Assembly (NCBI GenBank): GCA_951406725.2 | Contig: OX597814.1 | Span: 150,970,001 to 151,034,000 of the forward strand | Length of the DNA stretch: 64,000 nt | Origin: Octopus vulgaris | Taxonomy: Eukaryota | Reading direction: 5' to 3' | Part shown: positions 9,307-39,062 of the stretch, piece by piece | How positions within the stretch are numbered: position 1 is the first letter of the stretch | How the letters are laid out: each line of letters starts with the position of its first letter | Translations under genes and position numbers: made by a program | Notes under the pieces: generated by a model | Seen by the model: the letters and a program-made list of their open reading frames with translations, nothing else | Databases searched by the model: none | What the model was told of the DNA's origin: nothing

Positions 9307-9349
<43 letters not shown>

Positions 9350-9379
9350 TTGAGTTGTGGGGTATCGCACGAGTGGGAT

Positions 9380-10811
9380 TATATAAGAAAAAAGGTTTGA
9401 AAATGCAATTTAAACGATGTTTATTTACTTAACCGGTTTCACTCTTTGGTAAAAGATTGTCAAAAGTAACATTTAAGGAAACATTGAATAATATGGGTTC
9501 AAAAAAAGTTTTTTACATAATTGTCACATTGAATATTATGCATTCAAAAAAGTTTTTTACATAATTGTCACATTGGATATTATGAATTCAAAAATGTTTT
9601 TTTATACATAATTGTCACATTACATGTATAAATATAGTGTTTGGTAACAGAGAAGTTCAATAGTGTGATGAGAATATTTGGGAAAATTTGGCAGAAAAGG
9701 ATAAAACAAATATATTATTGGGAATTGGTTGCGTTAATTATTGGTTGTCGCAAATTGTCACATTACATGTATATATATATATACAGTCTTTGGTATATAT
9801 ATACAGCCTTTTGACAGCAAAAATTAAAATGGATTTTTTATACATCTCAGAATATTTTAAGTTTAAGGCGAGAATATGTTTTTACTGACCTGTCGGTATT
9901 AGCAGAAACGCTGAACTGAGAGAAAAGAAGAAGTAGCCAATGTGGTGTATACTTCCCCTTTATGCATGAATGATTTTGGGGTTATCAGGAGGTTAGTATG
10001 CGGGTGTGAATAGATGTGTCCATGCCCGCTGGTAAGATAGCGTCTGTTTGTCACACACATATATATATACACACACACACACATACAACAACAACACACA
10101 CACACACACACACAGAACACACACCCACACACAACGCACCCACATATATCACATATACACACAGCACACAAATATAACATGTATCTATATATAATATACA
10201 CAGATATATAACACACATACACACACAACACACACACACAACACACACACACACACACAACACACGCACACATACATACATAATATAAATATCACACAAA
10301 TACACATAGCATATATATACACATACAATACACACATACAGCATGTAAATAATACACACACAATATATGCATGCAATATACATACGCAATACATACATAT
10401 AATATATATATATATATAGACAATGCATATACATATATACATATATACATATAAATAGTGTTTACATACACATACATAGATATACCACATATACACACAA
10501 TATACATACATACAATGCATACACATACACGTACGCATACATATAATATATATATACACACACACACACATAACATACATACACAATGCATACATATATA
10601 TACACGCAATGCATATACATGTATTCATGCATATATAGCACACCTACAATATACATATATACAATGCACACATACACACACATATATACACTTAATTGTA
10701 CACATACATATACAATACACATACATACAATATAGATATACACAATGCGCATGCAAATAATGTACATGTTTATACACACATAAACATGCAAATAAATATA
10801 CACACACACAC

Positions 10812-10848
<37 letters not shown>

Positions 10849-11050
10849 CATACATACATACATACATACATGCACATACATATATTTTTTCACACACATA
10901 CACACACATATATATATGTAAAAAAAAAATCACCACCCCCCCCCACACAAATTACAAACCTATAGCGTACACACTCAAATATATCTCTACATACCGCACA
11001 CACAAACAAAGTACTAACATATACACACATACCATGCATATACACACACA

Positions 11051-11085
<35 letters not shown>

Positions 11086-11305
11086 AAAACAAATACACAT
11101 GTAAATACATACACACGTACACAATGCTCACACACACACACATACACACACACCCGCACACAGTGCACACATACACACACATATATACACACGTGCACAC
11201 ACACACACAACGCGCGCGCACACACACATATACACACACACGCACATAGTGCACACACACACACACACATATATATATACACCCGCGCACACACACACAC
11301 AACGT

Positions 11306-11343
<38 letters not shown>

Positions 11344-11661
11344 CACTCACACACATACATCACCTACATATATATAATGCATGCGTGTGCATGCCACGTA
11401 TGTGTGCGGTCAATGCCCGCTAGTGTGTCCTATGCGTGCCGATGCGCGCATGTGCCCGCCCGCACGATATGCTGTGAGCGTGCGCGCGTCCCTGTGTGCT
11501 TGCTCTGGATGTGTTTCCAGGGGGTATGTTAGAGTATGTTTAGTTGTGGTCTGTATTTTTGAATAAGATTACTTTCCTTATTTATTCGTGTTTGGTCTGT
11601 GGTGTTGTCCGAGCATTGGTATAGTGGGAAGACTAAGAATTTGGGGGACTTATTGTGTGCA
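9380..11661 (-). repeat. Left inverted arm (last ~44 codons of the ORF, 3' region and pseudo-LTR in antisense)
   Basis: Reverse complement of 13779-15864; mirrored ORFs 9688+/15354- (identical) and 11381+/13874- (near-identical); minus ORF 11529 ends with the same AHNKSPK...PQLNIL as the main ORF. Confidence 0.95.
9425..9469 (-). ncRNA. Minimal type I hammerhead motif (U3-A8 variant), left-arm copy
   Basis: TTACTT-TTGACAA-TCTTTT-ACCA-AAGAGT-GAAA-CCGG-TT-AAGTAA; first stem II pair is a U-U mismatch in this copy. Confidence 0.7.
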
Positions 11662-13911
11662 AAAATAGTGAATCTTTCTAACCTAAACCTGTCGACACCA
11701 CAAATAAAAATCCTTTCAAGAGGACTAAAATTCACCCCAACTCCGCAATACCCTAACCTGAGGGAAATACAGGATGACATCTCGCACTTTTGCAGAAAAT
11801 TACGCCTCACAGAGGAATTTTTTGACAGGAAAACTAATAACAACGACGAATCAATGGTCTGTAACAAAAGCAACTATAATCCCACAAAAGGCAAAAACAA
11901 AACCTTAGACAAATTTTGCGATTACATCTCCAACTTCCCTTATGGTGAACTCCCACAACCTAAACTCAAACCCAACACCAGTAAAAGAGAATGGGAAATC
12001 ATCCATACGCTACGAGACAATCATGACGTCACAATAAAGGAAGCTGATAAGGGTAGTACGGTCGTTGTTATGAATACTGAGCAATATAAAAACTCTGTAT
12101 CTCTCCTTTTAGAGGATACCACATACTATGAAAGAGTAGTCGACTACCAGCAATCCAAAACAATGACCAATCTGAAGGCACTCATTTACCAACACCGGAA
12201 TGACTTGACAGCAAAGGAATGCGACTACATTACTAAATTTAATTGCAAAACCAGCACACTCTATGGGCTTCCAAAAATACACAAGAGTCAAATTATCACA
12301 GAAGCTTGCAAAAAGTCCACTTCAACCTGCATCACTATACCACATCCCACTGATCTCAAACTGAGACCAATAGTGGCAGGCCCAAGTTGTGAAACACACA
12401 GACTTAGCAACTTTATAGATATCATCTTAAAGCCAATACTGAAACACATTCCAAGTATTGTAAGAGATGACCTAGACCTATTAAACCATCTCCCCAAACA
12501 TGCCGATAAAGACACCTTAATCGTTTCTTTTGATGTTATTAATCTTTACACCACAATCCCACATGAATATGGACTGGAAGCCATTAAATTCTGGCTGGAT
12601 AAATATCCCAATGAGATCCCGGAAAGAATTAAAAAAGAATTCATAATTGAGGGCCTCAAATTTATTCTGCAAAACAACTTCATGTATTTCCACAACAACA
12701 CTTACAGACAGGTCTCAGGAACTGCAATGGGTACGAAAGTTGTACCTACCTATGCAAACCTGGTGATGGCCTACCTGGAATCACATATCTATGAAAAATC
12801 CAAATATAAGTACGGCCAGTCTTTCCACAAATACCTGTTGGAGAACTGGAAACGCTACTTAGATGATTGCCTCATCCTATGGTCCCACACACTCGACCAA
12901 CTTATAGACTTCAAAAACCTTATCAGCAGTGTAAATAACAACATTCAATTCACAATGGAATATAGTCAGGACCAACTCCCTTTTCTTGACATCCTAATCA
13001 TTAAAAAAGGCGTCAACATTGAAACTGACATCCATTACAAACCCACTGACTCTAAACAATACCTTCTATTCACCTCCAATCACCCAAAACACACAAAGAC
13101 AAATATCCCCTTCAACCTAGCGAGAAGAATCTGCACTATTGTCTCAAATGACACAACACGAAATAGAAGACTCCGGGAACTAAGGGCAATTCTTCTCGAA
13201 AGACATTACCCGGCATCACTAGTAGACAACGGAATAGAACGGGCCAAATCAATCAACATTCAAGACTTTCGAAAACCCAAACACATCCACAGTACAGTAA
13301 ATAGCCTCCCCTATCTCTCAACACACAACCCAAGGAATGCAGAAGCTTACACTATTATATACAACAACATTCCACAACTAAATCAAGACCCACGCCTGAA
13401 AAAAATACTGGCAGCTCATAAAATAATAAAAAGTAAGAGACAACCTAAATCCCTAAAAAACCTCCTCACCAACGCAAAATTACACAACACAAACCCACCG
13501 CCCACCATCAAAAAATGTGGTCGCCCCAACTGCAAGACCTGCATCCACCTCATTGAGGGATCGTCGTACAAGTTCCACTCGGGACACACATTCATCATAA
13601 AAAATAATTTCACGTGCGCTTCAAAAAATTTACTCTACGTCATAAGGTGTGAAGGATGCCACGAAGACTACATAGGGCAAACGAGCCTTACCCTCAGAGA
13701 AAGAATGACAGTTCACCGACAACAACTGAGGGACCCCTCCACAAGACAGATACCACTAAGTGGACACTTAGACCTTTGTGCACACAATAAGTCCCCCAAA
13801 TTCTTAGTCTTCCCACTATACCAATGCTCGGACAACACCACAGACCAAACACGAATAAATAAGGAAAGTAATCTTATTCAAAAATACAGACCACAACTAA
13901 ACATACTCTAA
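11662..13911 (+). CDS. PLE polyprotein: reverse transcriptase + Cys-rich linker + GIY-YIG endonuclease (native 5' end missing)
   Basis: IVNLS..LSRGLKFTPTP N-terminal motif; LYGLPKIHK, LRPIV, SFDVINLYTTIP, GTAMGT, RYLDD, LPFLD, YKPT, SNHP; CGRPNCKTC linker; LLYVIRCEGCHEDYIGQT, R..H, ESNLI, PQLN; no stops. The first 21 aa of ORF 11599 derive from the inverted arm. Confidence 0.95.
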   Translation, partial: KIVNLSNLNLSTPQIKILSRGLKFTPTPQYPNLREIQDDISHFCRKLRLTEEFFDRKTNNNDESMVCNKSNYNPTKGKNKTLDKFCDYISNFPYGELPQPKLKPNTSKREWEIIHTLRDNHDVTIKEADKGSTVVVMNTEQYKNSVSLLLEDTTYYERVVDYQQSKTMTNLKALIYQHRNDLTAKECDYITKFNCKTSTLYGLPKIHKSQIITEACKKSTSTCITIPHPTDLKLRPIVAGPSCETHRLSNFIDIILKPILKHIPSIVRDDLDLLNHLPKHADKDTLIVSFDVINLYTTIPHEYGLEAIKFWLDKYPNEIPERIKKEFIIEGLKFILQNNFMYFHNNTYRQVSGTAMGTKVVPTYANLVMAYLESHIYEKSKYKYGQSFHKYLLENWKRYLDDCLILWSHTLDQLIDFKNLISSVNNNIQFTMEYSQDQLPFLDILIIKKGVNIETDIHYKPTDSKQYLLFTSNHPKHTKTNIPFNLARRICTIVSNDTTRNRRLRELRAILLERHYPASLVDNGIERAKSINIQDFRKPKHIHSTVNSLPYLSTHNPRNAEAYTIIYNNIPQLNQDPRLKKILAAHKIIKSKRQPKSLKNLLTNAKLHNTNPPPTIKKCGRPNCKTCIHLIEGSSYKFHSGHTFIIKNNFTCASKNLLYVIRCEGCHEDYIGQTSLTLRERMTVHRQQLRDPSTRQIPLSGHLDLCAHNKSPKFLVFPLYQCSDNTTDQTRINKESNLIQKYRPQLNIL

Positions 13912-14346
13912 CATACCCCTTGGAAACACATCCAGAGCAAGCACACAGGGACGCGCGCACGCTCACAGCATATAGTGCGGGCGGGCACATGCGCGCATCA
14001 GCACGCATAGGACACACTAGCGGGCATTGACCGCACACATACGTGGCATGCACACGCATGCATTATATATATGTAGGTGATGTATGTGTGTGAGTGTTAT
14101 ATGTAGGTGATGTATGAGTGTGTGTGTGTGTGTGTGTGTGCACGTTGTGTGTGTGTGTGCGCGGGTGTATATATATATATGTGTGTGTGTGTGCACTATG
14201 TGCGTGTGTGTGTATATGTGTGTGTACGCGCGCGTTGTGTGTGTGTGTGTGGGGGGGTGTGTGTGTGTGAATTTTTTTTACATATATATATGTGTGTGTA
14301 TGTGTGTGAAAAAATATATGTATGTGCATGTATGTATGTATGTGTG

Positions 14347-14379
<33 letters not shown>

Positions 14380-15614
14380 CTGTGTGTGTATGTGTGTGTG
14401 TGTATATTTATTTGCATGTTTATGTGTGTATAAACATGTACATTATTTGCATGCGCATTGTGTATATGTATATTGTATGTATGTGTATTGTATATGTATG
14501 TGTACAATTAAGTGTATATATGTGTGTGTATGTGTGCATTGTATATATGTATATTGTAGGTGTGCTATATATGCATGAATACATGTATATGCATTGCGTG
14601 TATATATATGTATGCATTGTGTATGTATGTTATGTGTGTGTGTGTGTATATATATATTATATGTATGCGTACGTGTATGTGTATGCATTGTATGTATGTA
14701 TATTGTGTGTATATGTGGTATATCTATGTATGTGTATGTAAACACTATTTATATGTATATATGTATATATGTATATGCATTGTCTATATATATATATATT
14801 ATATGTATGTATTGCGTATGTATATTGCATGCATATATTGTGTATGTGTATTATTTACATGCTGTATGTGTGTATTGTATGTGTATATATATGCTAGGTG
14901 TATTTGTGTGATATTTATATTATGTATGTATGTGTGCGTGTGTTGTGTGTATGTGTGTGTGTTGTGTGTATGTGTGTTATATATCTGTGTATATTATATA
15001 TAGATACATGTTATATTTGTGTGCTGTGTGTATATGTGATATATGTGGGTGCGTTGTGTGTGGGTGTGTGTGTTCTGTGTGTGTGTGTGTGTGTTGTTTG
15101 TATGTGGTGTGTGTTTGTATACTATGTGTGTGTGTGTGTGTGTGTGTTGTTGTTGTTGTGTGTGTGTGTGTGTATATATATATGTGTGTGACAAACAGAC
15201 GCTATCTGACCAGCGGGCATGGACACATCTATTCACACCCGCATACTAACCTCCTGATAACCCCAAAATCATTCATGCATAAAGGGGAAGTATACACCAC
15301 ATTGGCTACTTCTTCTTTTCTCTCAGTTCAGCGTTTCTGCTAATACCGACAGGTCAGTAAAAACATATTCTCGCCTTAAACTTAAAATATTCTGAGATGT
15401 ATAAAAAATCCATTTTAATTTTTGCTGTCAAAAGGCTGTATATATATACCAAAGACTGTATATATATATATACATGTAATGTGACAATTTGCGACAACCA
15501 ATAATTAACGCAACCAATTCCCAATAATATATTTGTTTTATCCTTTTCTGCCAAATTTTCCCAAATATTCTCATCACACTATTGAACTTCTCTGTTACCA
15601 AACACTATATTTAT

Positions 15615-15760
15615 ACATGTAATGTGACAATTATGTATAAAAAAACATTTTTGAATTCATAATATCCAATGTGACAATTATGTAAAAAACTTTTTTGAAT
15701 GCATAATATTCAATGTGACAATTATGTAAAAAAACTTTTTTTGAACCCATATTATTCAAT
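15615..15760 (+). repeat. Three ~45-bp tandem units just upstream of the hammerhead (mirror copy ~9482-9625)
   Basis: AATGTGACAATTATGTAAAAAA..TTTTGAA..CATAATATTC repeated three times. Confidence 0.8.
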
Positions 15761-15773
15761 GTTTCCTTAAATG

Positions 15774-15818
15774 TTACTTTTGACAAACTTTTACCAAAGA
15801 GTGAAACCGGTTAAGTAA
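15774..15818 (+). ncRNA. Minimal type I hammerhead ribozyme motif (U3-A8 variant), right-arm copy
   Basis: Stem I TTACTT/AAGTAA perfect; core TTGACAA; stem II ACTTTT-ACCA-AAGAGT (one G-U); GAAA; palindromic ACCGGT stem III; predicted GUU cleavage site at 15812; AATAAA at 15818-15823. Confidence 0.8.
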
Positions 15819-15855
15819 ATAAACATCGTTTAAATTGCATTTTCAAACCTTTTTT

Positions 15856-15891
<36 letters not shown>

Positions 15892-16634
15892 GTAATATAT
15901 ATTTAATATATGTCTGTGTGTATATATATATATATGTGCGTACGTATAACGGTTCTTAAGGTGGCATAGAACATCCTATATACAAATGTTCTATCTCAGC
16001 GCTCGCCTTTCAATGAATAAGCAGACTCAGGACACACAACCATAAACGTATATGATGGGATAGGGGATAAGTATTTGACTCAGCTCAGCATTAAAGTTTC
16101 ACTGGTGAAACCTTCACTTTATCAGATTTTAAAGACACTGTGAAAAAAATTTAAAAGAAATTTTAAATGATTTCATGATGAGAGTATTTAGACCTTCAAG
16201 TTTCGTGGGATTTTTTTGCTATCATACGTGGTGTAGCAGCCCAGATGTTAGCGTCACCTAGTGGGTATTTTTACGAGATAAAATTTTCAGCGACAGCAGG
16301 TTTTTACCCTGCATGTTACACGTTGTAGAATAGAAAATAAGTAGCTGTCAGTTATTTGTCTCTCAGGAGAGAGAGAGGGAGAGAGAGAGAAGAGCCTTAT
16401 AGGCTTGTTATCAAATAATTATGATGAATATTTTTATATTGGGAACTAAAATTTAATGCAACAAATCGTCAGAGGTAGAAGTATTTCCGACTTTAAAACT
16501 GGAACCAGTCAGTCAACAAGTAGCGACTTTTAGAAGATTGGACTGAATGAAGTTTTAGTGAGGTAGGTATGACAAAATATATTTCTTTCAACGGTTACAT
16601 TTATAATGGATAATTCGTAATGGATAATCCTTTC

Positions 16635-17445
16635 CTAGTCCCACCATACACACAACAACCTTTTACTCGGATGAAGATCTTGTTTCACGCGCGGTGTCGC
16701 TTGTGTACCGGGGCTAAGGCATTCCTTATGCTGCTTCATATTGATGTAAAGGCACCATTTTTCGTCGCCAGTAACGATTCGGTAAAGAAGTCGTTGCTTG
16801 TGTCCATGAGTTGAGCGGTGACGAACAAGCAAACCAGCGGAGATTATGGCTCGTTGATTTTTTGTTGTTGTCACTTAAAGCATGCAAACCCATGCTCCAT
16901 ACTTCTGAACCTTTCCCATCGAGTGAAGATGCTTTTCTATAGCAGTGTGGGAGCATTCCATTTTCTCTGCCAGTTCCCTTGTCATTTGAGGAGAATTTTC
17001 GTGCAAAGGTTGATTTAATCGCTCTTCATCGAACGGCCAGAACGAGGTGCGTCTTTGAGGTCAAAATTTCCATGTTTAAACTTGGCATACCAATCACGAG
17101 CGGTTCTTTCAGCTATGACACCCTCTCCATACACAGCGCAAATGTCACGAGCAGCTTTTGCGGCCTTAGAACCTTGATTAAAAGTAAAAAGAAGAAGGTG
17201 TCGAATATGCTCGTTTTTCTTATCTTAACATTCCATTTTAATGATCTGAAAAGGAACAAAAATTAACTAAAATTAACTAGAAAAAAGACAAAATAGATTC
17301 CAAAATGATTCAAAAATAGAATTCTCGAAAAAAAAATAGATTCCAAAATGATTCAAAAATAGAATTCTCGAAAAAAAATAGATTCCAAAACTTAAAAACG
17401 CAAAAAATTCTAAAATTTCAAAAACGGTGGAAACTTAATTGCCAT
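16635..17445 (-). mobile_element. Mariner DNA transposon remnant (5' half, transposase pseudogene)
   Basis: From ATG at 17236: MEC*DKKNEHIRHLLLF..AARDICAVYGEG..W..KFKHGNFDLKDAPRSGR; then RIVTGDEKW and HPSKRLLCVWWD; TIR-like AAAACGGTGGAAACTTAATTGCCA at ~17421-17445. Confidence 0.88.
17290..17390. repeat. ~43-bp tandem repeat in the mariner 5' UTR
   Basis: AAATAGATTCCAAAATGATTCAAAAATAGAATTCTCGAAAAA about 2.4 copies. Confidence 0.85.
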
Positions 17446-18115: not shown

Positions 18116-18116
18116 C

Positions 18117-18176
<60 letters not shown>

Positions 18177-18193
18177 CATCAGCAGCAGCAGCA
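18116..18193. repeat. (TAG)n/(CAG)n microsatellite
   Basis: Direct reading. Confidence 0.95.
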
Positions 18194-19327: not shown

Positions 19328-19362
<35 letters not shown>

Positions 19363-19408: not shown

Positions 19409-19411
19409 CTA

Positions 19412-19979
19412 AATCTTCCATATAGATATGTATTCGGCTAAAACGATCGTTAAAACCAACTTATTAGCGAGAAAGCCTACATTATTATGTATTTAGTGAT
19501 AGTGGAGAGAAAATTCTCACGATATAGACCATCCCCCATGGTTTGTAATAATTTCTCTGCAATTCTAATAAAATGCATAATCCGACAGGGTCATTTATCT
19601 GAATCAGATGAACTCAAAGTTAACCCAAAATTACTACATCTAGATTTTGAAATCCTGTAATTATCAATGATAGATATAAGTGTGTTCCTGGATATTAAAA
19701 ACATAGTCTGTCTGTAGATGTGATATATTTTTGGCTTGATATACTTTTGATGGTTTGTGTATAACATTCTGAAATAATTTAAATTAAAATTAATATTAAT
19801 AAATTATGAATAATAATCACGTATTTTTAGAATTAGTGGCTTTATTCTTAATAAAGCGGCCGTTGAAAGCAATTTGAATATGATCTATCTGTGAAATGTA
19901 TGCTTTTTCGCTAATTTACTCTAAGAATACGTTGGTTTTAACGATCGTTTTAGCCGTATACATATCAATATGGAAGATT
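19412..19979. mobile_element. MITE-like element with ~70-85 bp imperfect terminal inverted repeats
   Basis: AATCTTCCATAT..CGGCTAAAACGATCGTTAAAACCAAC vs GTTGGTTTTAACGATCGTTTTAGCCG..ATATGGAAGATT. Confidence 0.65.
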
Positions 19980-20057
19980 CTTTCCGTCTGGATATACTAC
20001 AATATTATAACGTATCAGAATTTAACGATGCATTATTATTTGAGCTTTTTATAAATA

Positions 20058-20960: not shown

Positions 20961-20963
<3 letters not shown>

Positions 20964-21442
20964 TGCTTTATTTTGAGATTGCTAATAATAAAATACAGAC
21001 TGGAGTTATAGGGCTCCAAGTGAGCTATATTCCGCTTATTAATCTGAATGGAGGCAATGCAAGCGGAAACTAGAGAAGCATACTTAAAAACCACACTCAA
21101 AATCAAATATATACACGTATTCTTCTATATTTATAAAACAGATATGAATCTTCCAAAGATATAAATATAAAACTACATATAAATAGAAAATATCCATATG
21201 ATATATAAAACAGGGAATTTTAGATTTAAAAGTTATAATACATTCGTGTAATACATTCGTGTCTTTTATATATCATCACGATATTTTCTATTTCTATTTA
21301 TTTTTATTTTTATGTACTTGGAATTATTATATCCGTTTTATAAATGTAGAAGAATATATGTATATATTTGATTTTGAGTGTGGTTATTAATCATGTTCCT
21401 CTAGTTTCCGCTTGCATTGCCTCCATTCAGATTATTAAGCGG
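20961..21442. repeat. Diverged fold-back insertion between (TA)n tracts
   Basis: 21032-~21210 is an imperfect reverse complement of ~21262-21442; extra sequence 20961-21031 on one side only. Confidence 0.8.
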
Positions 21443-21450
21443 TATGCAAA

Positions 21451-22095: not shown

Positions 22096-22257
22096 TTAAA
22101 TTAGAGACAAACACTATTATGCAAATCAATGCTTTGCATAATAATGGTTGTCTCTAATTTAATATAATATAATATTTTACTATAAAATTGGATTCAATCC
22201 TAAATCTGATTTTTCCCTGTAAGTTTGGATTTATTCCTTAATTTTTATTATTATTAT

Positions 22258-22465: not shown

Positions 22466-23967
22466 ACTTTGATACTTTGATACTTTGATAGGTTTCGGCC
22501 ATTATTGGCCCAGACCATGTCTAACTTAATAGCACCACCTGGTGAAGTCTTTCAAGTCAGAATTTGGGCACTATGGCCCACTCAAGTAGAGAGTTATTGT
22601 TTACAGAGACATATCCAGGTGTAGGGGGTTTATCCGGGATTTCTTGAAGGAATCTGTCCAAAGACTTCTTGAACCCTATAGGGTCAGTTTCTGTTTTAAT
22701 GTGTTTTGGTGTAATGTTAAAGAGAGCGGGGCCAATTGAGGTGAAATAATTGTGCCGTATTGTTGTTATGAGATGAGAGTGCGATTTTTGTTTTGGGCGG
22801 ATGGCACGGGGCCCAAGCCTTGGATGTACCTTAAAGGTGATGCCAACATCATTTGGGCAATGCTGATGGAATATTTTCCACATCATGCAGATGATGTAGC
22901 GCTCACGACGACGTTGGAGAGAATAGAGTTTTAGCTTTTCTAGCCGACCCCAATAGTCGAGGCCTGTCATGCCATCTTTCTTTTTTGTGATTGCCCTTTG
23001 AGGTGCTTCAACTTTTATGATACCTTGTATTGTGTGGGGAGACCACAGTGGACAACAGTATTCAAGGTGGGGTCGGGCAAAAGTGGAGAAGAGAAGGATA
23101 ATGGTGTGGATATCTCTCGACTGGAAAGTTCTGAGAATCCAGGAACACATTCTGCGGGCCATGTCAACTTTGGTGTTTATATGAGTGGCCCAGCTTACGC
23201 TGTTGTCCACAATTACTCCCAAGTCTCTGATGTTGTTGGACGCCGCGAGAGTTTCACCTGAAGGAAGGGAGTATGGGAGTTTCAGGGCATCCTCTTTTCC
23301 AAAGTGGATTAGCTCAAATTTATCCTCGTTCAGCAGCATATTGTTTTTTTCTGCCCATTGGATAACAGCCAGTAGATCTGACTGAAGGCATGTCCGGTCA
23401 CTCGCCTCATTTATGACCTTCTGTAGCTTGGAGTCATGTGCAAAGATTTTTATGTTGCTGTGCTTGATGATGTCATTAATGTCATTAATGTAAATGATGA
23501 AAAGAAGTGGGCCCAGCACAGTGCCTTGCGGAACGCCACTACTGACTTTGGCTGGGCTTGATTTTACCCCTTCAACTACAACATGTTGAGATCTGTCTGT
23601 CAGGAAACACTTAATCCATTTCAGTAACTTTCCAGAGACACCAATGTTGGATAGTTTTTTCAATAGGATCTTGTGATCGACCCTGTCGAAGGCCTTACTG
23701 AAATCAAGGTAGATGACATCGGTGTTGGAGCCCTCTCCCAAAGCTCTCAAAATGTCCTCAAAGTGATGCAGGAGCTGCGTTAGGCAGTCCCTTCCATTAC
23801 GGAACCCATGTTGGTTGGAGATCAGCCGTCTGTTGCTTTCCAGAAATTGGGTTATTCGAGATCTCACCACCCTCTCAAATACCTTGATGATATGAGAGGT
23901 GAGTGAAATCGGACGGTAATTCACTGCAAGGGACTTGTTTCCCTTTTTGAAAACTGGGACAACAGTT
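22466..23967 (-). mobile_element. 5'-truncated CR1-group LINE in (TA)n
   Basis: RT ORF, short 3' UTR, (TATCAAAG)3 tail; (TA)n on both flanks. Confidence 0.92.
22557..23965 (-). pseudogene. LINE ORF2 RT domain and C-terminus (5' truncated; catalytic FADD altered to FAHD)
   Basis: [60 protein letters not shown]. Confidence 0.9.
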
Positions 23968-24296: not shown

Positions 24297-24637
24297 TTGT
24301 TATATTTCGGAATGGTCATATTGCCAGTTTAGCCAATAAAAACACACGCACTATATATTTGGTGTTATTTTGCTTCAGTGATATTTATTTTTTACATTAA
24401 TCTTAATCTTATTTCTCCCAAAGTTCTTTCGTCACACTCCTGTGACCGCATCAGTGGTCCTTTGTTTTCTTCTCACTTATTTGTGTCTCTCCTTACTAAC
24501 CAAGCAAAATAACACCAAATATATAGTGCGTGTGTTTTTATTGGCTAAACTGGCAATATGACCATTCCGAAATATAACAATATCTGTTTCAACACACGAC
24601 TTCACATAAAAAATCTTGCACAACAAATATTTAAACG
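24294..24637 (-). mobile_element. Non-autonomous fold-back element (probable PLE terminus) in (TA)n
   Basis: Perfect 82-bp inverted repeat 24294-24375 / 24502-24583, hammerhead-like motif in the loop, one-sided extension 24584-24637. Confidence 0.75.
24418..24457 (-). ncRNA. Hammerhead-like motif (variant core)
   Basis: CCA-CTGATGC-G-GTCACA-GGAG-TGTGAC-GAAA-GAAC-TT-TGG; perfect 6-bp stem II, 3-bp stem I, A9 replaced by C. Confidence 0.55.
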
Positions 24638-24685: not shown

Positions 24686-26007
24686 TATGACTGGGTGTTG
24701 AAACAGCTACTAAATGACTCAAATGTGGATGTAATATATCTCGACTTTGCAAAAGCCTTTGATAAAGTCGACCATGGTATGATCTGTCACAAACTGCGTG
24801 GTCTCGGCATAGGCGGGAAACTTGGAGAGTGGCTGCACAACTTCCTAAAAGACAGAAAACAGGCAGTTGTGAGCAATGGAGCCACCTCCAAGGAAACGCA
24901 AATAACAAGCGGTGTCCCACAGGGCACTGTCTTGGGGCCACTGATGTTCATAGTGGCCCTTTCAGACATGCCTTCAGTTGCTACGATGACCACCCTTGCT
25001 AGCTATGCAGATGACACAAAAGTCTCCCACGCAATACAAAACCCTGAAAATATTGCGCATCTGCAACATGAGCTGGACACAATATACAGGTGGGCTGAGG
25101 ACAACAACATGCAGTTTAATGCAGGTAAGTTCCAGGCCCTGCGCTACTGGCACACAAAGGTAAATGACGTGAAGACTGGATACACTGGCCCAGGAAGAAT
25201 TGCAATCCCTGAGTCAAAATCAGTGCGTGACCTGGGCATTGACATGAGCAATGATGCATCTTTCCAAATGCATATTGCTAATCTGGTGATAAAATGCAGA
25301 CGGCTAGCTAGATGGATTCTCCGAACTTTCAGAACAAGAGAGAAGGAGACACTGATGGTCCTATGGAAAACATTCGTCCTCAGCCGCTTGGACTACTGCT
25401 CCCAACTTTGGTCACCACACAATATAAAACAAACAGCAGAACTCGAAGCAACTCAGAGAAGCTACACAAAGAAAATCGTCTCAATGCAAAATGTCAGCTA
25501 CTGGGAAAGACTGAAGGTATTAAACCTCTTCTCCCTGGAGCGGAGGCGGGAGAGATATGCAGTGATATACATCTGGAAAATCCTGGAGGGTCTTGTCCCA
25601 AACTTTGGCATTCAAAGTTACTCCAACCGCAGAACGGGGCGCCGCTGCGTGGTGCCAAGGATTCCAACATCACCATCAAAATACAGGTCCAGATACTGCA
25701 ACAGCTTGGGTTTCAGAGGACCACAGCTCTTTAACATCCTCCCTAAATGCCTGAGAGACTTACATGGTGTGGATGTGGGTTTCTTTAAAATTAAACTGGA
25801 TCTCTTCTTGTTGGGAGTCCCAGATGAACCTACCTCACGACAGGAGACACGGATGCGGGCAGCAGCATCGAACTCCCTTGTTGATCAAGTGCCACGTATC
25901 AGAGGTGGATTCACAAACTAGTGTAGCTCATTCAGCGGTGGTGCCCCAGCATGGCCGCGGCCTTCGGGCTAAAACATTTTTAAGGATTTAAGGATTTTAA
26001 GGATTTA
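24686..26007 (+). mobile_element. 5'-truncated CR1-group LINE in (TA)n (frame open to stop at 25921)
   Basis: [43 protein letters not shown]; 3' UTR stem-loop; (TTTAAGGA)n tail. Confidence 0.92.
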
Positions 26008-26832: not shown

Positions 26833-27392
26833 GAGTGATGATACCTCTTTCCAAGTGCACATCACCAGTGTAAAATTAACAGCGGACCTTGAAGCAATCC
26901 AGAGAAGATTCACAAAGAAGATTGTCTCTTTGCAACGGCTCGGCTACTGGGAAAGGTTGAAACAGCTAAGACTCTACTCCCTGGAGAGAAGACGGGAGAG
27001 GTATGAAGTAATATATGTCTGGAAGATCCTGGAAGAAATTGTGCCAAATTTTGGCATTGTAAGCTACACCAATGCTAGAACGGGACGACACTGCATAGTG
27101 CCAAAGATCCCAGCAATGCCATCACGCTTCAGGACCAGCTTCTGCAACAGCCTGGGTTTCAAGGGCCCACAGCTTTTTAATATTCTCCCAAAGAGTCTGA
27201 GGAACTTGCACAAAGTAGATGTAGCGGTTTTTAAATCGAAGCTGGAGATCTTCCTGTCGAGAGTCCCAGCTGAACCTACCTCACGGCAAGAGGTGCAAAT
27301 GAGAGTAGCTATATCAAACTCCATTCTTCACCAAGTGCCACATATTAGACGAGGTGCATCAACATGGCCGCAGCTCGGAATGAAACTGGAGA
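26833..27392 (+). mobile_element. CR1-group LINE 3' fragment with an internal deletion
   Basis: [38 protein letters not shown]; homologous to the C-terminus of 24686-25921. Confidence 0.88.
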
Positions 27393-27407
27393 AAAAAATA
27401 TATATAT

Positions 27408-27943: not shown

Positions 27944-27946
<3 letters not shown>

Positions 27947-28139
27947 CCAAACAAGAAAGCACAAAAACAAAACACAACAACGCGAGGACGTAGAACAAAT
28001 ATAGTATTATTGGACGGTCAGGAAAGAAGGAGGGTTTAACGTTTCGAGCGGAGCTCTTCGTCGGAAACATAGAAGGAAAGATCCAGAGATGGGAAGACAG
28101 AGGGAAAAAAATCGCCAACGGTACACACGAGGTCACATT

Positions 28140-28140
<1 letters not shown>
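27944..28140 (-). mobile_element. Short hammerhead-containing insertion between (TA)n tracts (probable PLE pseudo-LTR fragment)
   Basis: ~200 bp unique block bounded by TA repeats, containing the motif at 28034-28068. Confidence 0.6.
28034..28068 (-). ncRNA. Minimal type I hammerhead motif (U4C variant)
   Basis: GTTT-CCGACGA-A-GAGC-TCC-GCTC-GAAA-CG-TT-AAAC; palindromic ACGT stem III. Confidence 0.65.
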
Positions 28141-28210
<70 letters not shown>

Positions 28211-28213
<3 letters not shown>

Positions 28214-28710
28214 ACACAATACATGTCCTTAATTGATACTAATAATTTCATATGTTGAGAAATATCTGAAGCATTAATTTTCAAGCACAAACCATTTATC
28301 ATAACGAACTAAAAAAATTTTGAATGAGGAGAAACGTGAAAATCTGAGTAGGCAGCATATAGAAAACGCAGAAGATTAAAAAAAAAAAAAACAGAAAACA
28401 AAACACGGAAAACGAAAATACAAAAGCTAAAACGTAAAAAGTACGAAGTAAAAAGGTAAAAGAGTTATCCTCCTTAGACCTGCGTTTTCTACATGCTGCA
28501 TTTTCATTTTTTTCACATTTCTTCTCATTCAATTTTTCTTTTAGTTCGTTATGGTATGTGGTTTGTGCCTGAAGAATATGTTTGAGATATTTCTCGATAT
28601 ATGACACTACTAGTAGCACTTAAACACATGTATTGTGTCCTTTACATAATATTTATCACTCACCAGTTGGAGTACTTTTGTTGAATTTTCTATCACGGAA
28701 CAGTATGTTA
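28211..28710. repeat. Old diverged fold-back insertion next to (TA)n
   Basis: AGGACACAATACATGT / ACATGTATTGTGTCCT termini; inner pairs ATAACGAACTAAAA / TTTTAGTTCGTTAT and TAGAAAACGCAG / CTGCGTTTTCTA. Confidence 0.75.
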
Positions 28711-28795: not shown

Positions 28796-28834
<39 letters not shown>

Positions 28835-30689: not shown

Positions 30690-32005
30690 CTCACGAATGC
30701 CTTGCGATTAGCTTTGGTAGACGGAAACTGAAAGAACCCCATCGTGTATATATATGTGTGTGTGTGTGTGTGTGTGCGTGTGTGTATGCGCGCGCGCGTG
30801 TTTGTTTGTTTGTTTCTCCTCTACCATCGTTTGACAACCAGTGTCGTTTGTTTATGCTCCAGTAATCTAGCAGTTTGGCAAAAGAGATCGAAGATCTTTT
30901 CCTTTTGATCGGCAGTTCGATAAATTATTTTTTTTTTTTAAAACTAAACTCTTTCAGACTTTGGATACTGGAAGAATGTGTCATTTAGAACATCTTTTAC
31001 TCTTAGCTTTGTTAAGAAAAGTATCTATTTACGAAGTTATTTCGTGTTAAAGTTGTCGTATTTCGGTAATATCAACCAATCAATGACGTGTATTCAGCTG
31101 AATAAAATTACTGCTATTGCTTGTCTACAACAACTATCGGCGGTATATATTTCGTTTGTCACTGTTATCTATGACATCATTCGTGCATTTGTACTGGTTT
31201 TAGCTTTAAGGTTTTAGGGTTCGGGTTTTGCGGTTAGGGTTTTAGGGTTAGGGTTAGGGTGTTGGCGTTTTAAGGTTAAGGAAAAAAGTGATAAACGAAG
31301 AAATTGGAGTGGAGGGGTAAGGTGTGGGGTCAAAAATTTTCAAAATTCTGATTTTTGACAATTTTCTGGAATATCCGTATCCGAAAAGCTGGGTTTTGGC
31401 AAAAAAAAAAACAATAAAAAAAAACAATAATTTACGAGAAAATGGGTGGGGACGTGAGGAAGTCTTTCCGGAAATTGTAGCTGAAAAACTGGAAGAAAAA
31501 CTAAAACTAGTAGAAATGCACGAACGATTATAATGGTGTCGTAAAGTAAACGTGCTTCAGATACACTCGTTCATACATACGAACGTAACTGAGATTTTAA
31601 ATATGTCATAAATAACAGTGACAAACGAAATATACACCGCCGGAAGTTGTTGTTGACAAACAACAGCAGTAACTTTATTCAGCTCAATAGACGTCATTGA
31701 TTGGTTGAAATTACCGAAATACAACTTTAACACGAAATAACTTCGAAAATATAAACTTGTCTCAACAACGCTAAGAGTAAAAGATTATCTATAAGACACA
31801 TTCTACCAGTATCTGAAGTTTGAAAGTCTTAAGTTTAAAAAAATTAATTTAACGACCTTCCGATCAAAAGGAAAAGATCTGAGATCGATAGAATAAGTAC
31901 CAGGCTTTAAAAATATGTACTGGGGTCGTTTTGTTCGACTACATCCTTTAAGGTGTTACCCCAGCACGGCCGCAGTTCAATGACCAGAACAAGAAAAGAT
32001 AATAG
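30690..32005 (+). mobile_element. SINE family A copy split by the TIR element
   Basis: ..GGCAAAAGAGATCGA | insert | GAGATCGATAGAATAAGTACC.. Confidence 0.8.
30892..31880 (+). mobile_element. Non-autonomous TIR DNA transposon with long TIRs, 8-bp TSD and internal (TTAGGG)-like array
   Basis: Ends AGATCTTTTCCTTTTG / CAAAAGGAAAAGATCT; TIRs ~280 bp; TSD GAGATCGA (30884-91, 31881-88); telomere-like repeats ~31200-31280. Confidence 0.9.
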
Positions 32006-32481
32006 AAATATATATATATATATATATATAGGTGTGTGCGCGAGTGTTGTCTGAAAAGATTTACACGAGTTTAAATATATCCATTTATAGAAAATCGGTT
32101 TCCTAAACAAGATTTGATGAAATATGAAAATGTAAAAACAGCCGTTTTTATAAAATGAGATTACTTTTCTATTCTATTGATAAATATAGTCTAGATCATA
32201 CAGTTGTCATTCTTCATTTATTCCACCTCAAAAATATCTGTTTCTGCAATGGTTTTCTTAGTTTTATCACTCACTCCTAAATTACTTTATGATCTGACTC
32301 AATTTACATTCGAAAATGTTTCCCGTATTTTTTCTGTCGACGCTGAAATTATTATATCTCTGAATTATCATGATAGCTAGTTACGAGCACATAAAACTGT
32401 TGAATTCTGTTTCGTTTATTTCTTAATAATAGCGTACGCTATGTGAAAAGGTTTTGTAGTACATCTTCGAACTGGAAACTG

Positions 32482-32878
32482 AGGAGTTGCTGTGTGGTAA
32501 GTAGCTTGCTTACCAACCACATGGTTCCGGGTTCAGTCCCACCGCGTGGCACCTTGGGCAAGTGTCTTCTACTATAGCTTCGGACCGATTAAAGCCTTGT
32601 GAGTGGATTTGGTAGACGGAAACTGAAAGAAGCCCGTCTATATATATATATGTATATGTAAGTGTGTGTTTGTGTGTCTATGTTTGTCCCCCCAGCATTG
32701 CTTGACAACCGATGCTGGTGTGTTTACGTCCTCGTAACATAGTGGTTCGACAAAAGAGACCGATGGAATAAGTACTAGGCTTACAAAGAATAAGCTCTGG
32801 GGTCGATTTGGTTGACTAAAGGCGGTGCTCCAGCATGGCCGCAGTCAAATGACTGAAGCAAGTAAAAGAGTAAAGAGA
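32482..32878 (+). mobile_element. SINE family A, full length
   Basis: Colinear with 20094-20504. Confidence 0.9.
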
Positions 32879-33849
32879 GGGTAATTCTGCTACATCATTG
32901 GAATAATCAGCCATGGATGCTATTAAGAAATAGACAAGAGGGAAGGTATCGGGGGGAGGGGGTATTTTAAATGGCTAAAATATCATTCACGATGATATTA
33001 CACCAGTTTCAGTACACGATCTCACATCAAGTCACTTGTTAAAGAAGTACAACAGTAACTTGTTAATATTGTAAATATTTCATTTTAGTTTCTCTCCACC
33101 TTTGAGTAGTAAAATGGCGAAATTTCATGCTTAGAAATTAATAAATACGCACTTTGCAAACACCATATGTAAATAATACAATGAAAATACGAAAAGGTTG
33201 TTTTTGTTTGTTTTTTTTTCCTAAAATTTATCATTCAACTGTTCGTCATTGTAAAAATAGCGTGAGCGCTCTATTCTTTTGTTAGAAAAAAACTCTTTGT
33301 TTATCGCAAGAATTCAAATGATTTAAACGAAATTTATTATGCATACATAAAAATACACATATACACACCTACACGAAGACTTAAAAAATAATTCAAATGA
33401 TCTTCAAATTGTATGAAAAAAAAAAACATAAGCAAAACATTTTCAACGCTGATTTCCATTCAAAAAGATACTGAATTTTAAAACTATAATTTGATAGTGA
33501 AACGACTACATCCGCTAAAATAAACTCATTTCTAAAACAAAAGCCATATGATATAAACAATGTTTTCAAAAATAGAATGAGGAAGATTGTATGAAATTAA
33601 GATATTTAAATAAGAATACAGGTAAAATTGTACACATAAGATCTAATTACAAGATCAAGTGTGTGTTACGAATAAATACGTAAATACGCTGAACCAGTTC
33701 CAAATATATCTCGTTTTACTATAAAATTAGACTGCTGAATATGTATGTTATATATAGGCCTAATTATATATATCGTACTTAAGGTATGATTTGCAGAGCT
33801 GGCAATTTCTAAACCGTCTATAATGAAACGCATTGTTCTTCATTTAAAT

Positions 33850-34060
33850 TATTGGTTTTCAGATATTGGCAGCAAGTTCGGGGATTGGGGTAAGTCGATT
33901 ACATCGACCATCAATGTCCAACAGGTACATTATTATCGACCTGGAAGGGATGAAAGGTAAAGTTGACCTTGGGGGAATTTGAACTCACATCGTAAAGACG
34001 GGCGAAATGCTGCCCGACATTTTGCCCAGTTCGCTAACGATTCTGCAAACTTGCCGCCTT
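33850..34060 (-). mobile_element. SINE family B (diverged)
   Basis: GGATGAAAGGTAAAGTTGACC..GAATTTGAACTC..GCCGCCTT. Confidence 0.7.
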
Positions 34061-34071
34061 ATTCAGTTAAA

Positions 34072-34295
34072 GGATATTTTCCCTTTGAACGGCAGATTGA
34101 GAAATTAATTTTTTGTAACTAAACACTTTCAAACTTCGGACACTGGTAGAATGTGTCATATAAAACATCTTTTACTCTTAGCGTTTTTGAGAAAAGTTTC
34201 TATTTACAAAGTTATTTCGTGTTAAAGTTGTCGTATTTCGGTAATTTCAACCAATCAATGACGTGTAATCAACTGAATAAAATTACTGCCGTTGT
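34072..34295. mobile_element. Solo TIR of the 30892/41361 family
   Basis: GGATATTTTCCCTTTGAACGGCAG..; colinear with 30892-31120; no convincing partner end. Confidence 0.8.
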
Positions 34296-35057
34296 TATAT
34301 CTTGCCTGATTGATACACTTTCAATTCTCCTATCTTCTGCAGAATATACTTTGTACACAATAGTCCTTTCCTGCATATCTTTTATTACTCCCTGGGGTGG
34401 CAACAACTTTGCGTCACCACCTTCTCTGTGTGCCATCTTCTCATAACTTTTCAACATTGACAGATCCACCTCCTTATTCGCAACTTACGCAAAACTTTTC
34501 TTCTTTAATTGACAATCCATTCTTTTCATCACTCGTACAAGTTCCTCTTCTGACGATGATAATTCCGACCCACTAAGGTCTGAATAAAATAAATTGTTCT
34601 TTCTATCCCTAGCTAACTCTCCTCAAACGAGGAGAGAAACCACAAACAATTTGCTGCAAAGCAGCACGAAAACAATTTGCAAAGTGCTTTAAAAAACACT
34701 GACACAAAACAAAACGATGTTAACACTGTAAAAAATACGGTCAAATTGATTCACGTACACCTTGAAAAACACCGGAAGCGTGCTGGTGTTTCTTCCTTAT
34801 TTTTACTTTTGTTTTTGATTAGCCAAATTTCATTTACATCTTGCCGCAAGATAGATGGCTTCACTATAAATATTAGAATACCATTACAACATATGTTATG
34901 AATAAATAAATTCAAAGTCAACGTTCTACCATTATTTAAATGAGTTGTCAATCACAAGGTTGGTTTGTTTAAATTTTAATAAGTAACCTTCCACGACAAC
35001 CATACGCTGTTCGGGAAGAAGTGTTTAGACAAGCTTGCTTAAGTGTAGAAATATTCA

Positions 35058-35450
35058 TGGTGCAGGCGTGTCTGAGTGGAAAGAAGTTTACTTCACAATC
35101 TAATGGTTCCGGGCTCAGTCCCATTGCATGGCACCTTGGGCAAGTGTCTGCTCTTGTAGCCTCGGGCTGACCAAAGCCTTTTGAGTGGATTCGGTAGACT
35201 AAACTGAAAGAAGCCAGTCGTATAGATAGATAGATAGATTGATAGATACGAGTGAGTCTTTGTACCTATGTTTATCCCCACACCGTTTGACAACCGATGT
35301 TGGTGTGTTTACATCCCCGTGTCTAGCAGTTCATCAAAAGATATTGATAGAATAAGTACCAGGCTTTAAAAAATACTAGGGTTGATTCATTCAACTAAAA
35401 GCTCTTCAAGGCAGTGCCCCAGAATGGCCGCAGTCTAACGACTGAAACAA
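35058..35450 (+). mobile_element. SINE family A (older variant)
   Basis: Head, CACCTTGGGCAAG and 3' stem-loop present. Confidence 0.8.
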
Positions 35451-37175
35451 CCAATTGATAGAGGGTAAAACATGTCGGTTCGATCCCTAACCTAAGCTGC
35501 CAAAAAGGATCTCCCGATAGGTCTCACTTGAAAGTAAAAATGCATGTATGTATGTGTAGAATCTATCTATCTAAAAATAAATATTAATACAGAAGCTGGA
35601 AAAATTCACCAAGGACGTCAATCTTCTTTACTTCAGATTATCTGTTCACTAATCTTATATCGGGATCTACGAGATAGACCGAAAACTTCAAGTTGTGTAG
35701 AGGAATCGAGAATTAAACTGAATGCCCTTCGTGCTTTTCTGAAGTACTTTAGTAAATATGTGAAACTAAAATGATACTAGCAGATTTATAAAACGTTTCC
35801 GAGATTGAATAAAATACATCCTAACTACTCTTCACAAAACAATGACATTACAACAATTCTTTACTTTTAGCCTGAAAGTTGAGGGAAGTGTTAGTTTAAA
35901 TCATCAACCTCAGAATTTGACTGGTACTTTATCTTCTCGACCCCGTTAGAATAAAATTCAATTGTTTCTCATTCACAAAGAGTAGTTTCTTTGACCATGC
36001 AAACTATTAACAAATCATCTTCTTCATCTTTTGAGTATCTCTTTCTCATCGATAGCCACTAGTATGGCTTCCGAATAAGTAGAGTTAATCTAAACGAGAC
36101 TGCTTTTGTATACCACTGCCCAATCGTATAGCAGAGCAATCATCCTTGAGAACTTTAACGAAAACAATATCGCTGCTCCTCCACGTCAGTAAAGTTGTAT
36201 CTGACTGGAGAATATCCAAGCTATATTTTCTCTCTTACACTTTCATTTATATCTCAATTCTTAGAATGAAGACTCTCTGTCCGAATCTATAGTTACAATG
36301 TGAGATACTAGACTCCTCCCAATCTATACTTTGCTAGACCCAAATGTTTTGCTTGCATTTCCCACACTCTTCTGTACATTAATGACTTATTTTCTGGCAT
36401 TTCGAAACATCACAGAATCCCTTATCAACGACATCACTTTTCACTCCACATACCACGAAGATACTTTATTACAGACAATCACTATTTCCATGAAAAGAGA
36501 CTTCAAACACACTGTTCAGCTGTGATATAAACATCAACGGTTTTTCGCTCAACAGCCAAAAAACAAAACTAGTACACGTTGAAGAACCATTCTAGTACTT
36601 CACTCTTTCTCTCTCTCCTCTCTCTTCCTCTCTCTTTCTTTCTCTCTCCCCCTCTCTCTCTCCTTAGTTCCTCTCTATTTCTATTCTCTCTCTCTCTACT
36701 CATAAATCACACAATGATAGCGTTATGGTCGCTACAAACTCTAAACCTCACTCGTTCTGTCGATACCTTATTCCTAATTCACTTCTGTAACATTAACAAT
36801 GTCACCATTATACAAGGAATTCTTTCTGGAACCAGAAAATATTCCATACCTAATCAGGTACATACTCTCTACAAAGTACATGTAAGAGACGCATTAGAGT
36901 ACTAACCACACAAGTGATGATGGCAACGGAAAATGCCGAAACTGACGCGCCAGTCTTAAGAATTCAGTATTTTGGGGACAGTTATGGTCCCTGTTAGTAC
37001 ATGTTTTCATTCATGTACGTTAACCACAGTATTAGAGCCTTATAGGTCTTATTTCTAGCTATGTAGGGTTTTTTTAACACTCTAGTCACATTTAGTGACA
37101 ATTAGAATTCTCCCCTTGTTGGTGAAATATTGCAACCTGCTGTTTACATTAATTTTGTTTATATATATATATATA

Positions 37176-37500
37176 TGGCTCAGTGGTTAGAGCGTCGAGC
37201 TTACGATCGTGAGGTTGTGAGCTCGAATCCCGGACCGGGCTGCGTGTTGTGTTCTCGAGCAAGGCACTTTATTTCACGTTGCTCCAGTTCACTCAGCTGT
37301 AGAAATGAGTTGCGACGTCACAGGTGCCAAGCTGTATCGACCTTTGTCTTTCCCTTGGATAACACTGGTGGCGTGGAGAGGGGAGGCTGGTATGCATGGG
37401 CGACTGCTAGCCTTCCATAAACAACCTTGCCCGGACTTGTGTCTAGGAGGGTAACTTTCTAGGTGCAATCCCATGGTCATTCATGACCGAAGGGGGTCTT
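37176..37500 (+). mobile_element. tRNA-derived SINE family D
   Basis: TGGCTCAGTGG and GCTCGAATCCC boxes; central TTCACGTTGCTCCAGTTCACTCAGCTG shared with 43160-43410. Confidence 0.8.
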
Positions 37501-37624
37501 TACTCTTTATATATATATATATATATATATAACGTTATTATTCTGAGACTATACGTAGAAAGATCACAGAGGAAGCAATTCAGCTGACTAGTAACGAATC
37601 ATTCAACACGTTCTAAATATGCTT

Positions 37625-38002
37625 TAGGTGCAGTCGTGGCCGTGTGGTAAGAAGTTTCCTTCCTAACCACCTAGTTCCGAGTTCAGTCGCACTGCGTGGT
37701 CAAGTGTCTTCTACCAATAGTATCGCGCTGACCAAAGCCGTGTGAGCTGATTTGGTAGACGGAAACTGAAAGAAGCCCGTTGTATATGTGTGTGTGTCTG
37801 TATATTTGCGCGTGCTCGCGTCTTTGTACTTGTGTATGTCTTCCACAGCCGCTAGACAACCGTTGATCTATTTACACCCCTGTAACTTAGCGATTTGGCA
37901 AAAGATACTGATGTGAGTCAGTTTGTTCGATTAAATTGTTTCACGACAGTGCCCCCAGCATGATCAAAGTCTAATGACTGAAACAAATAAAGATAAAAGA
38001 AA
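37625..38002 (+). mobile_element. SINE family A (diverged)
   Basis: Colinear with other copies. Confidence 0.8.
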
Positions 38003-38816
38003 ATTTAGGTTGGAGCTTCTTTCTATGATTCTTCTACCGTTACGCCCTCGACTTTTCTCGTCTAGCTAGTTGTATACCATTTTTGTACCATATCCATCCA
38101 ATGCTTAGGTCTCTGTCGTCATCCACATTGTGCATCGTCTATCAACTTATATTTCATTGTATTTCTCAAGTGTGTAAAGGAAGTAGTTCCTTTTTGCTTT
38201 ATTAGCGGTATTATTGCTTTATTGCTGGTACACCATTTATTTTACCAAAACGCATAAAGAAAGAAATGGCTAATGCTTATTTCGATTTATCATATACTCA
38301 AAGTTTTCTTGAACTCACATCTGATCTGGTGATAATAATTTGACCATAAGTTTATAAAAAATTTTAATTTTGATAGTAGTCGGTGGAATACTGCTTTTGT
38401 AAAAATGATAGTACACCGAGCTAAATACTTTGCTGAATTTACTTTCATTCTATGTTCTGAATTGGAACCTGATACAGTTTAGTTGTCGTTAAATCGCTCG
38501 CAATTCGAGAATAAGAAATCCGGAGAATCAAAAATATATAAGTCCAGTTAACTACTAAAACTCTTTTTCACAGTATTATGTCGTTCAAAATTATTCTATA
38601 TTCCTGCTATTTACATTATTTTTTTCTGCTCATTCTTTAACCACATTTAATGTGAAGATATGATGGAATGCTGTGACAAACATTTCTTTGTAGGAGTGTC
38701 AAGGACTAACTAACATAATGTGTCCTTCCCTTTTTAAAATGTTAGAGAGTAATTTCAAGATTTGGTCGCTATGTCTACAAGGAAGAGCAACTGCAAGAAG
38801 GCACACATACATACGC

Positions 38817-38864
<48 letters not shown>

Positions 38865-38867
<3 letters not shown>

Positions 38868-39060
38868 ATTATAACAATGGGGGTCTTTGCAACAAGTTGC
38901 TAGACCACATACATATGTAGTCTAGCAACTTGTTGCAAATACTCTCATTGTTATAATTATATATAATTTTACCGAATATGGTCCTTTTCCATACCGAAAT
39001 ACTACTTGGTGAAATTTGGTGATTTTATTAAATTAATTATATTTCACCCTTTATCTGTAT

Positions 39061-39062
<2 letters not shown>
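38865..39062. repeat. Short fold-back insertion in (TA)n
   Basis: ~47-bp arms 38865-38911 / 38913-38960 plus a one-sided ~100 bp extension. Confidence 0.8.

Follow-up and report, generated by a model that had tools for sequence, protein, structure and literature searches.

A Penelope-like element and five shorter inverted repeats with one-sided extensions at TA repeats of Octopus vulgaris

Insertions of Penelope-like elements (PLEs) have been described as inverted, 5'-truncated copies that carry a tail at either end and are biased towards (TA)n (PMC8557442). A CX2-5CxxC linker upstream of the GIY-YIG endonuclease occurs in Neptune, Nematis and Naiad PLEs and was linked to the microsatellite bias in Neptune (PMC8557442). 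A 31-bp tail on one of two inverted pseudo-long terminal repeats (pLTRs), as well as junction palindromes, were reported by Arkhipova (2013, PMC3846280), and inverted pLTRs and short 3' extensions are used as curation features (PMC8969392). In vitro, both DNA strands are cleaved and extended by PAc (Poseidon of Anolis carolinensis; Frangieh 2024, PMC11167929), which starts reverse transcription at two adjacent internal sites, the sequence between them being the 30-40 bp tail, and these sites showed neither a strand difference nor homology to the cut DNA. Minimal hammerheads with a U3-A8 core form opposite-strand pairs 100-700 bp apart in metazoan PLEs (PMC4209133), and recently active Penelope-like families have been listed for Octopus vulgaris (PMC13282606). 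The accessible text of PMC12602865 holds nothing on tails or pLTRs, and that of bioRxiv 2026.07.22.740005 adds nothing on tails. Here, we analysed a window of 64,000 nucleotides from O. vulgaris (contig OX597814.1, positions 150,970,001 to 151,034,000; all coordinates below are those of the window) and compared six inverted repeats lying between TA repeats, termed E1 to E6, with these systems. We consider it likely that PLEs made all six, by two nicks, two cDNA starts and head-to-head joining, and for the largest, E1, we regard this origin as nearly certain.

A sequence-only reading had claimed six mutually unrelated inverted repeats, each with a one-sided extension beside (TA)n, and all of them were found at the positions it gave: E1 (9346-15863), E2 (20961-21445), E3 (22096-22254), E4 (24297-24637), E5 (28212-28710) and E6 (38865-39062). 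The arms measure 30 bp in E3, 42 in E6, 79 in E4, 160 in E5, 184 in E2 and about 2100-2290 in E1, and the extensions, spanning 34 to ~100 bp overall, measure 34 bp in E1, 57 in E4, 68 in E2, at least 70 in E5 (whose outer border is fuzzy), 92 in E3 and 102 in E6. None of the 15 pairwise comparisons beat shuffles (in the best case, 11 of 100 shuffles scored equally high), and the lack of any sequence in common among the six ends indicates that several unrelated families are involved. Upon random placement, only 0.4-0.7% of intervals came to lie with one end no more than 10 bp, and the other no more than 160 bp, from a TA tract. With dispersed-repeat pairs set aside, the inverted-repeat listing contains 12 local inverted repeats with a score of at least 40 (sorted by hand), and 6 of these show the geometry. 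Symmetric fixed ends, as expected of miniature inverted-repeat transposable elements (MITEs), were not seen, all six being asymmetric. A target-site duplication (TSD) is not readable inside the (TA)n flanks of any of the six, and comparison of their extensions with nearby DNA revealed no copies. Folding of hammerheads and extensions was no better than that of shuffles in 9 of 10 cases, the sole exception being the E6 extension (z -2.4).

E1 is an endonuclease-positive (EN+) PLE that combines an open reading frame (ORF) with a predicted hammerhead, a partial copy in inverted orientation and a tail of 34 bp. From left to right, a (TA)n target (9309-9345) is followed by the tail (9346-9379, minus strand), which sits on the inverted copy and whose outward strand is 68% A+C, and by an inverted copy of the 3'-terminal 2.1 kb of the element, truncated at its 5' end (9380-11665, minus strand), which includes a CA/TA-rich stretch of ~1.2 kb and, at 9463 to ~9431, the hammerhead in mirror image. 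A stop-free ORF of 748 amino acids (11665-13911, plus strand) encodes a reverse transcriptase (RT) with a C-terminal GIY-YIG and overlaps the right arm (13775-15863, plus strand), which represents the element's sense 3' region and ends in TATATA at a TA tract. The ORF has 634 relatives, which carry PF00078 and PF01541; the DKG and YLDD motifs and the GIY-YIG core align with theirs, and its own RVT_1 match (E 1.4e-6) falls just below the Pfam cut-off. Compared to its relatives, it lacks ~20 N-terminal residues and the start codon, and the closest named one, from Octopus bimaculoides, aligns with 55% of the query at 82% identity. The three cysteines of its CX4CXXC linker, C618, C623 and C626, are invariant across 21 sequences, and this linker together with the TA targeting suggests that E1 is of the Neptune type; assignment to Naiad was ruled out by the C-terminal endonuclease and the hammerhead. 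A direct pLTR is absent from the 5' end.

Behind the ORF, a minimal type I hammerhead motif with a U3-A8 core and a palindromic helix III is predicted at 15780-15812 (plus strand), its putative cut site lying 51 nt ahead of the short end. It is the only match of that descriptor in the window, while shuffled windows gave 0.075 matches each, and the same U3-A8 core was found behind the ORF of a relative (L085). The E1 core and palindromic helix III are like those of the hammerheads described by Cervera and De la Pena (2014, PMC4209133). Outside the CA/TA-rich part, the two arms match at 677 of 680 and 285 of 289 positions, so that the insertion is young. The CA/TA-rich, low-complexity DNA itself (1.1-1.3 kb; 10059-11376 and 14064-15183) is present in both arms and has diverged faster than the rest (92% identity or less); an E1-type element spreads microsatellite-like DNA. 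We also noted that the head-to-head junction (11655-11670) lies in an 8-bp palindrome, TGTGCACA, which is element sequence near 13775.

Putative hammerheads were likewise found in E4 and E5. The longer copy of E4 comprises an arm (24297-24375) and a loop (together 24297-24501, minus strand) with a hammerhead motif at 24454-24421 (minus strand; A9->C) that reads outward, 124 nt before the short end, and the shorter inverted copy (24502-24637, plus strand) comprises an arm (24502-24580) and an A+C-rich extension of 57 bp (24581-24637). Both arms are 100% identical, and it is the loop-less copy that bears the extension. In E5, the arms are 82% identical, and the right one (28480-28640, plus strand, reaching 28710 with its extension) holds a decayed hammerhead at 28569-28615 (plus strand) with an intact core and GAAA changed to GACA, while the left arm (28212-28371, minus strand) holds its decayed mirror, in which GAAA is intact and the core damaged. 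Both motifs, which the sequence-only reading had not reported, face outward, with 25 nt as the E5 distance to the short end, and none of 300 shuffles of E2, E3, E5 and E6 yielded an equally good match; lying 285 bp apart, they resemble the opposite-strand pairs described in PMC4209133. The extension decays into TA-rich DNA, the next clean TA tract being 155 bp off at 28796. With these outward motifs within ~125 nt of the 3' end, derivation of E4 and E5 from PLEs is well supported. Unlike the hammerheads of PMC4209133, theirs carry core changes and are probably inactive. For E1, E4 and E5, MITE status was rejected.

E2 appears to belong to a dispersed repeat family. Its 68-bp extension lies at the left (20961-21028, minus strand), followed by the left arm (21029-21212) with the loop (together 21029-21261, minus strand) and by the right arm (21262-21445, plus strand), which is 86% identical, represents the shorter copy without extension and is separated from the right TA tract by 6 unmatched bases. 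In a single contig run, 133 records matched the half-element (AT-rich matches of about 83%). Summed contig depth, which is no copy number, was high over 20987-21080 (2000-7000) and dropped inward to 200-700, and the high values at 20987-21028 assign no fewer than 42 of the 68 extension bases to the repeat family. Of the eight pieces listed, three start at 21022-21026, near the arm end, and others cross the extension. The family is colinear across the arm/loop border to 21252-21255 in one listed piece and several variant rows, with eight loose ends at 21252-21253 and no strand-switch joint among the listings. Since left arm and loop are thus continuous in the family contigs, the E2 extension is, on the basis of these AT-rich matches from one run, on the longer copy. 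The depth profile and the starts of the pieces would fit two 3' termini and 5' truncation over fixed symmetric ends, and a PLE origin of E2 is plausible, with a dispersed family whose depth falls inward. Its head-to-head junction holds a 13-bp tandem duplication.

E3 and E6 are near-perfect hairpins. E3 consists of a hairpin (22096-22162; arms 22096-22125 and 22133-22162, 93% identical) and a 92-bp extension (22163-22254), and E6 of a hairpin (38865-38960; arms 38865-38906 and 38919-38960, 90% identical) and a 102-bp extension (38961-39062). When considered as a hammerhead, the E6 extension was rejected, since core G8 is missing and surplus bases precede GAAA; a three-way junction with GAAA is predicted in it. 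Like E2, both are likely stumps of the PLE kind. A possible source of the three are Naiad PLEs, which, according to PMC8557442, have (TA)n targets and tails and no hammerhead. The claim that all six derive from PLEs thus holds to different degrees: directly for E1 by its ORF and hammerhead, with good support for E4 and E5 by theirs, and plausibly for E2 as a dispersed family.

The proposed mechanism would begin with GIY-YIG nicking both strands of (TA)n, as was observed in vitro for another PLE (PMC11167929) and as the TA flanks suggest here. From each nick, a cDNA would then be primed on the RNA end that holds the pLTR and hammerhead, with one start lying further 3', and the gap between the two starts would become the extension, as in vitro for PAc. 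Judging from the anatomy of the insertions, both cDNAs would halt early and join head to head, the further-running one supplying the loop or ORF. Which copy bears the tail would not be fixed, given E1 and E4 versus E2. Like published EN+ PLE insertions (Arkhipova 2013; Craig 2021, PMC8557442), those described here show head-to-head copies, 5' truncation, a one-sided tail, (TA)n targets, no discernible TSD and, in E1, the linker; like PAc, they show two 3' termini tens of bases apart past the hammerhead and an AT-rich target, and the E1 and E4 tails are A+C-rich. The suggestion that priming took place twice, at separate points of the RNA 3' end, was right in outline and agrees with PMC11167929, but it is not new. 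The geometry, the (TA)n targeting and the two-start origin of the tail have already been published (Arkhipova 2013; Craig 2021; Frangieh 2024), this is not a new system, and the six-repeat pattern leaves current knowledge of PLE integration unchanged. It does offer an annotation clue, in that asymmetric short hairpins between TA repeats here should be checked as PLE ends before they are called MITEs or microRNA-like.

Several observations weigh against a common PLE origin. None of the short elements E2-E6 could be linked to an ORF, and they gave no match against 120 PLE proteins. Compared with 86 outside loci, they gave none either, save one weak AT-rich match of 29 bp for E3. Unlike in published EN+ PLEs, E2, E3 and E6 are without a hammerhead, none being detected in any of them even with two mismatches allowed, and the extensions of the short elements are longer (57, 68, 92, 102 and at least 70 bp versus 30-40). 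All hammerhead motifs are predictions from custom-written descriptors, which were refined stepwise after a first version had missed those of E1 and E5, and an Rfam scan of the window gave 236 matches, of which the 150 listed include no hammerhead and are nearly all microRNA models triggered by microsatellites with scores below cut-off. Comparison with other copies was made for E2 only, where 8 of 134 pieces were listed and the raw-read runs X14-X16 returned 2, 0 and 0 reads, too few to inform. Since an element of Naiad origin would lack a hammerhead, the absence of this motif lowers confidence that E2, E3 and E6 are members of the PLEs, not that they work like them.

An alternative for the loop-less hairpins (E3, E6 and perhaps E2) is that each arose from one cDNA, whose end snapped back and copied 30-180 nt of itself before an internal TATA paired with the TA target, leaving the uncopied remainder as the extension. 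E3 and E6 are nearly loop-less, with short ends on ATATA and TATATATA runs, loop and extension of E2 share one copy, and junction palindromes have been interpreted as self-priming (PMC3846280). Such a snap-back cannot make E1 or E4, in which the extension is on the loop-less copy and both copies therefore hold unique sequence, and the three other E2 contig pieces that start near the same short end point to a family-level site. We consider this route improbable, and two cDNA starts remain our preferred explanation for the six.

For the two cases that it could orient, E1 and E4, the sequence-only reading further placed the extension on the inverted copy, which here is the shorter one. This is correct for both, the extended copy having neither the ORF nor the loop hammerhead. 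As a rule for the tail side, it is contradicted by E2, and PMC8557442 reports the tail at either end. Among 86 outside loci with relatives of the E1 protein, 27 inverted repeats were listed and 13 examined, of which three showed a one-sided extension of 26-33 bp and a TSD of 9-11 bp. These three include locus L078, a PLE whose inverted copy bears the tail, and L028, a 346-bp palindrome without an ORF and with a predicted hammerhead in each arm; L070 has the same tail and arm as L078, likewise inverted, and L060 has no assignable orientation. Within the window, a fold-back at 3448-3838 (itself 3463-3820; arms 3495-3548 and 3767-3820; second inner inverted pair 3603-3639 and 3728-3764) has a 15-bp TSD, a left extension of ~30 bp and a decayed hammerhead (3549-3590, minus strand) on the extension-bearing copy. 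A tRNA-like head near 3650-3725 was recognised by eye from A/B-box-like motifs, and ARAGORN and Rfam found nothing there. If this head is real, the extension-free copy may be the longer one, and the whole is possibly a SINE-like (short interspersed element-like) head fused to a PLE end. The tally for a tail on the inverted shorter copy was three for (E1, E4, L078), one against (E2) and one ambiguous (3463-3820), so the side rule is not supported and was rejected as a general rule. Some PLE proteins filed under bacterial metagenome-assembled genomes or symbionts (L080-L086, P0016, P0033, P0045, P0077) are likely host-animal DNA.

Unlike in PAc, four of the six insertions have 4-8 nt of overlap between their short end and the TA target. 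At this end, the long copy itself reads alternating T/A for 6 nt in E1, 5 in E3, 4 in E4 and 8 in E6 (one change allowed in the tract), the runs of E3 and E6 being ATATA and TATATATA. In E2, a T/A run of 5 nt is found no more than 3 nt from the arm end, the point at which other contig pieces start, and E5 has no such run. With per-element chances of 0.08-0.23, the probability of at least four of six is 0.004, in a post hoc test with n=6. Outside the window, a PLE ending in (TA)n with tandem continuation in the same contig (L086) overlaps by ATAT; the TSD-flanked 3495-3820 and L078 show no T/A overlap at the short end. Tentatively, the nicked (TA)n primer of (TA)n-targeting PLEs might anneal to an internal AUAU and so set the second cDNA start. 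Such pairing could conceivably also fix the short end and account for extensions of 34 to ~100 nt rather than 30-40. If true, priming would be homology-guided, unlike the homology-free initiation shown for PAc, and many hairpins of cephalopod genomes classed as MITEs or unknown would be PLE stumps. This microhomology lead alone would add mechanism, namely how (TA)n families choose the second start site. We found no literature on a tail-side rule or on short-end microhomology in TA-targeted PLEs in a search that covered neither supplements nor most subscription papers.

A short-end overlap would result not just from pairing-guided priming but equally from joining at microhomologies or from slippage at a later time. 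In the last case, all would be PLE insertions with ordinary tails of 30-40 bp, and the longer extensions and the ATAT coincidence would stem from deletions by slippage, with the TA tract as one partner and the nearest internal ATAT of one arm as the other. Such deletions leave microhomology, and the longest extensions (E3, E5, E6) sit on diverged arms (82-93%). However, E4 has an extension of 57 bp although its arms are 100% identical, the young E1 already has a 6-nt overlap, and the E2-family pieces have a common short end, so that we judge later erosion unlikely and retain two separate cDNA starts as the source of the extensions. Least probable is that E3, E6 and possibly E2 are not PLE-made at all and represent decayed MITE/Helentron-like hairpins, or palindromes formed by template switching, with a preference for TA repeats or the ability to seed them and with flanking DNA as the extension: they are very AT-rich and have neither a hammerhead nor a protein match, but the terminal inverted repeat (TIR) elements of the window (30886-31886, 41360-42280) are symmetric and without TA flanks, and 42 of the 68 E2 extension bases are family sequence.

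These two TIR-type controls belong, together with 34072-34296, to a family with (TAACCC)n-like internal repeats, and the copy at 30886-31886 breaks up a SINE-like repeat. In general, the window is AT-rich animal DNA dense in microsatellites, SINE-like repeats and fragments of long interspersed elements (LINEs), and a viral contig scan returned zero relatives. The TA-rich block that holds E2-E4 also contains three LINE RT fragments (22557-23966, 24690-25921 and 26834-27400), each of which begins or finishes at TA arrays; two of the three are strong RVT_1 matches, and one fragment is 74% like the second. A solo PLE-like end without an inverted partner (27945-28140) is flanked by two TA tracts and holds a minimal predicted hammerhead (minus strand, 28064-28038, U4->C) 93 nt before TA. 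A possible seventh case at 19412-20050 has 54-bp arms (94% identical), a 460-bp loop and an extension of ~70-80 bp rightward to a TA tract, its left side adjoining a truncated SINE-like repeat. Finally, an inverted repeat at 370-618 has 72-bp arms, a SINE-like fragment within its loop and a weak candidate TSD of 7 bp, with gaps of 26 and 18 bp.

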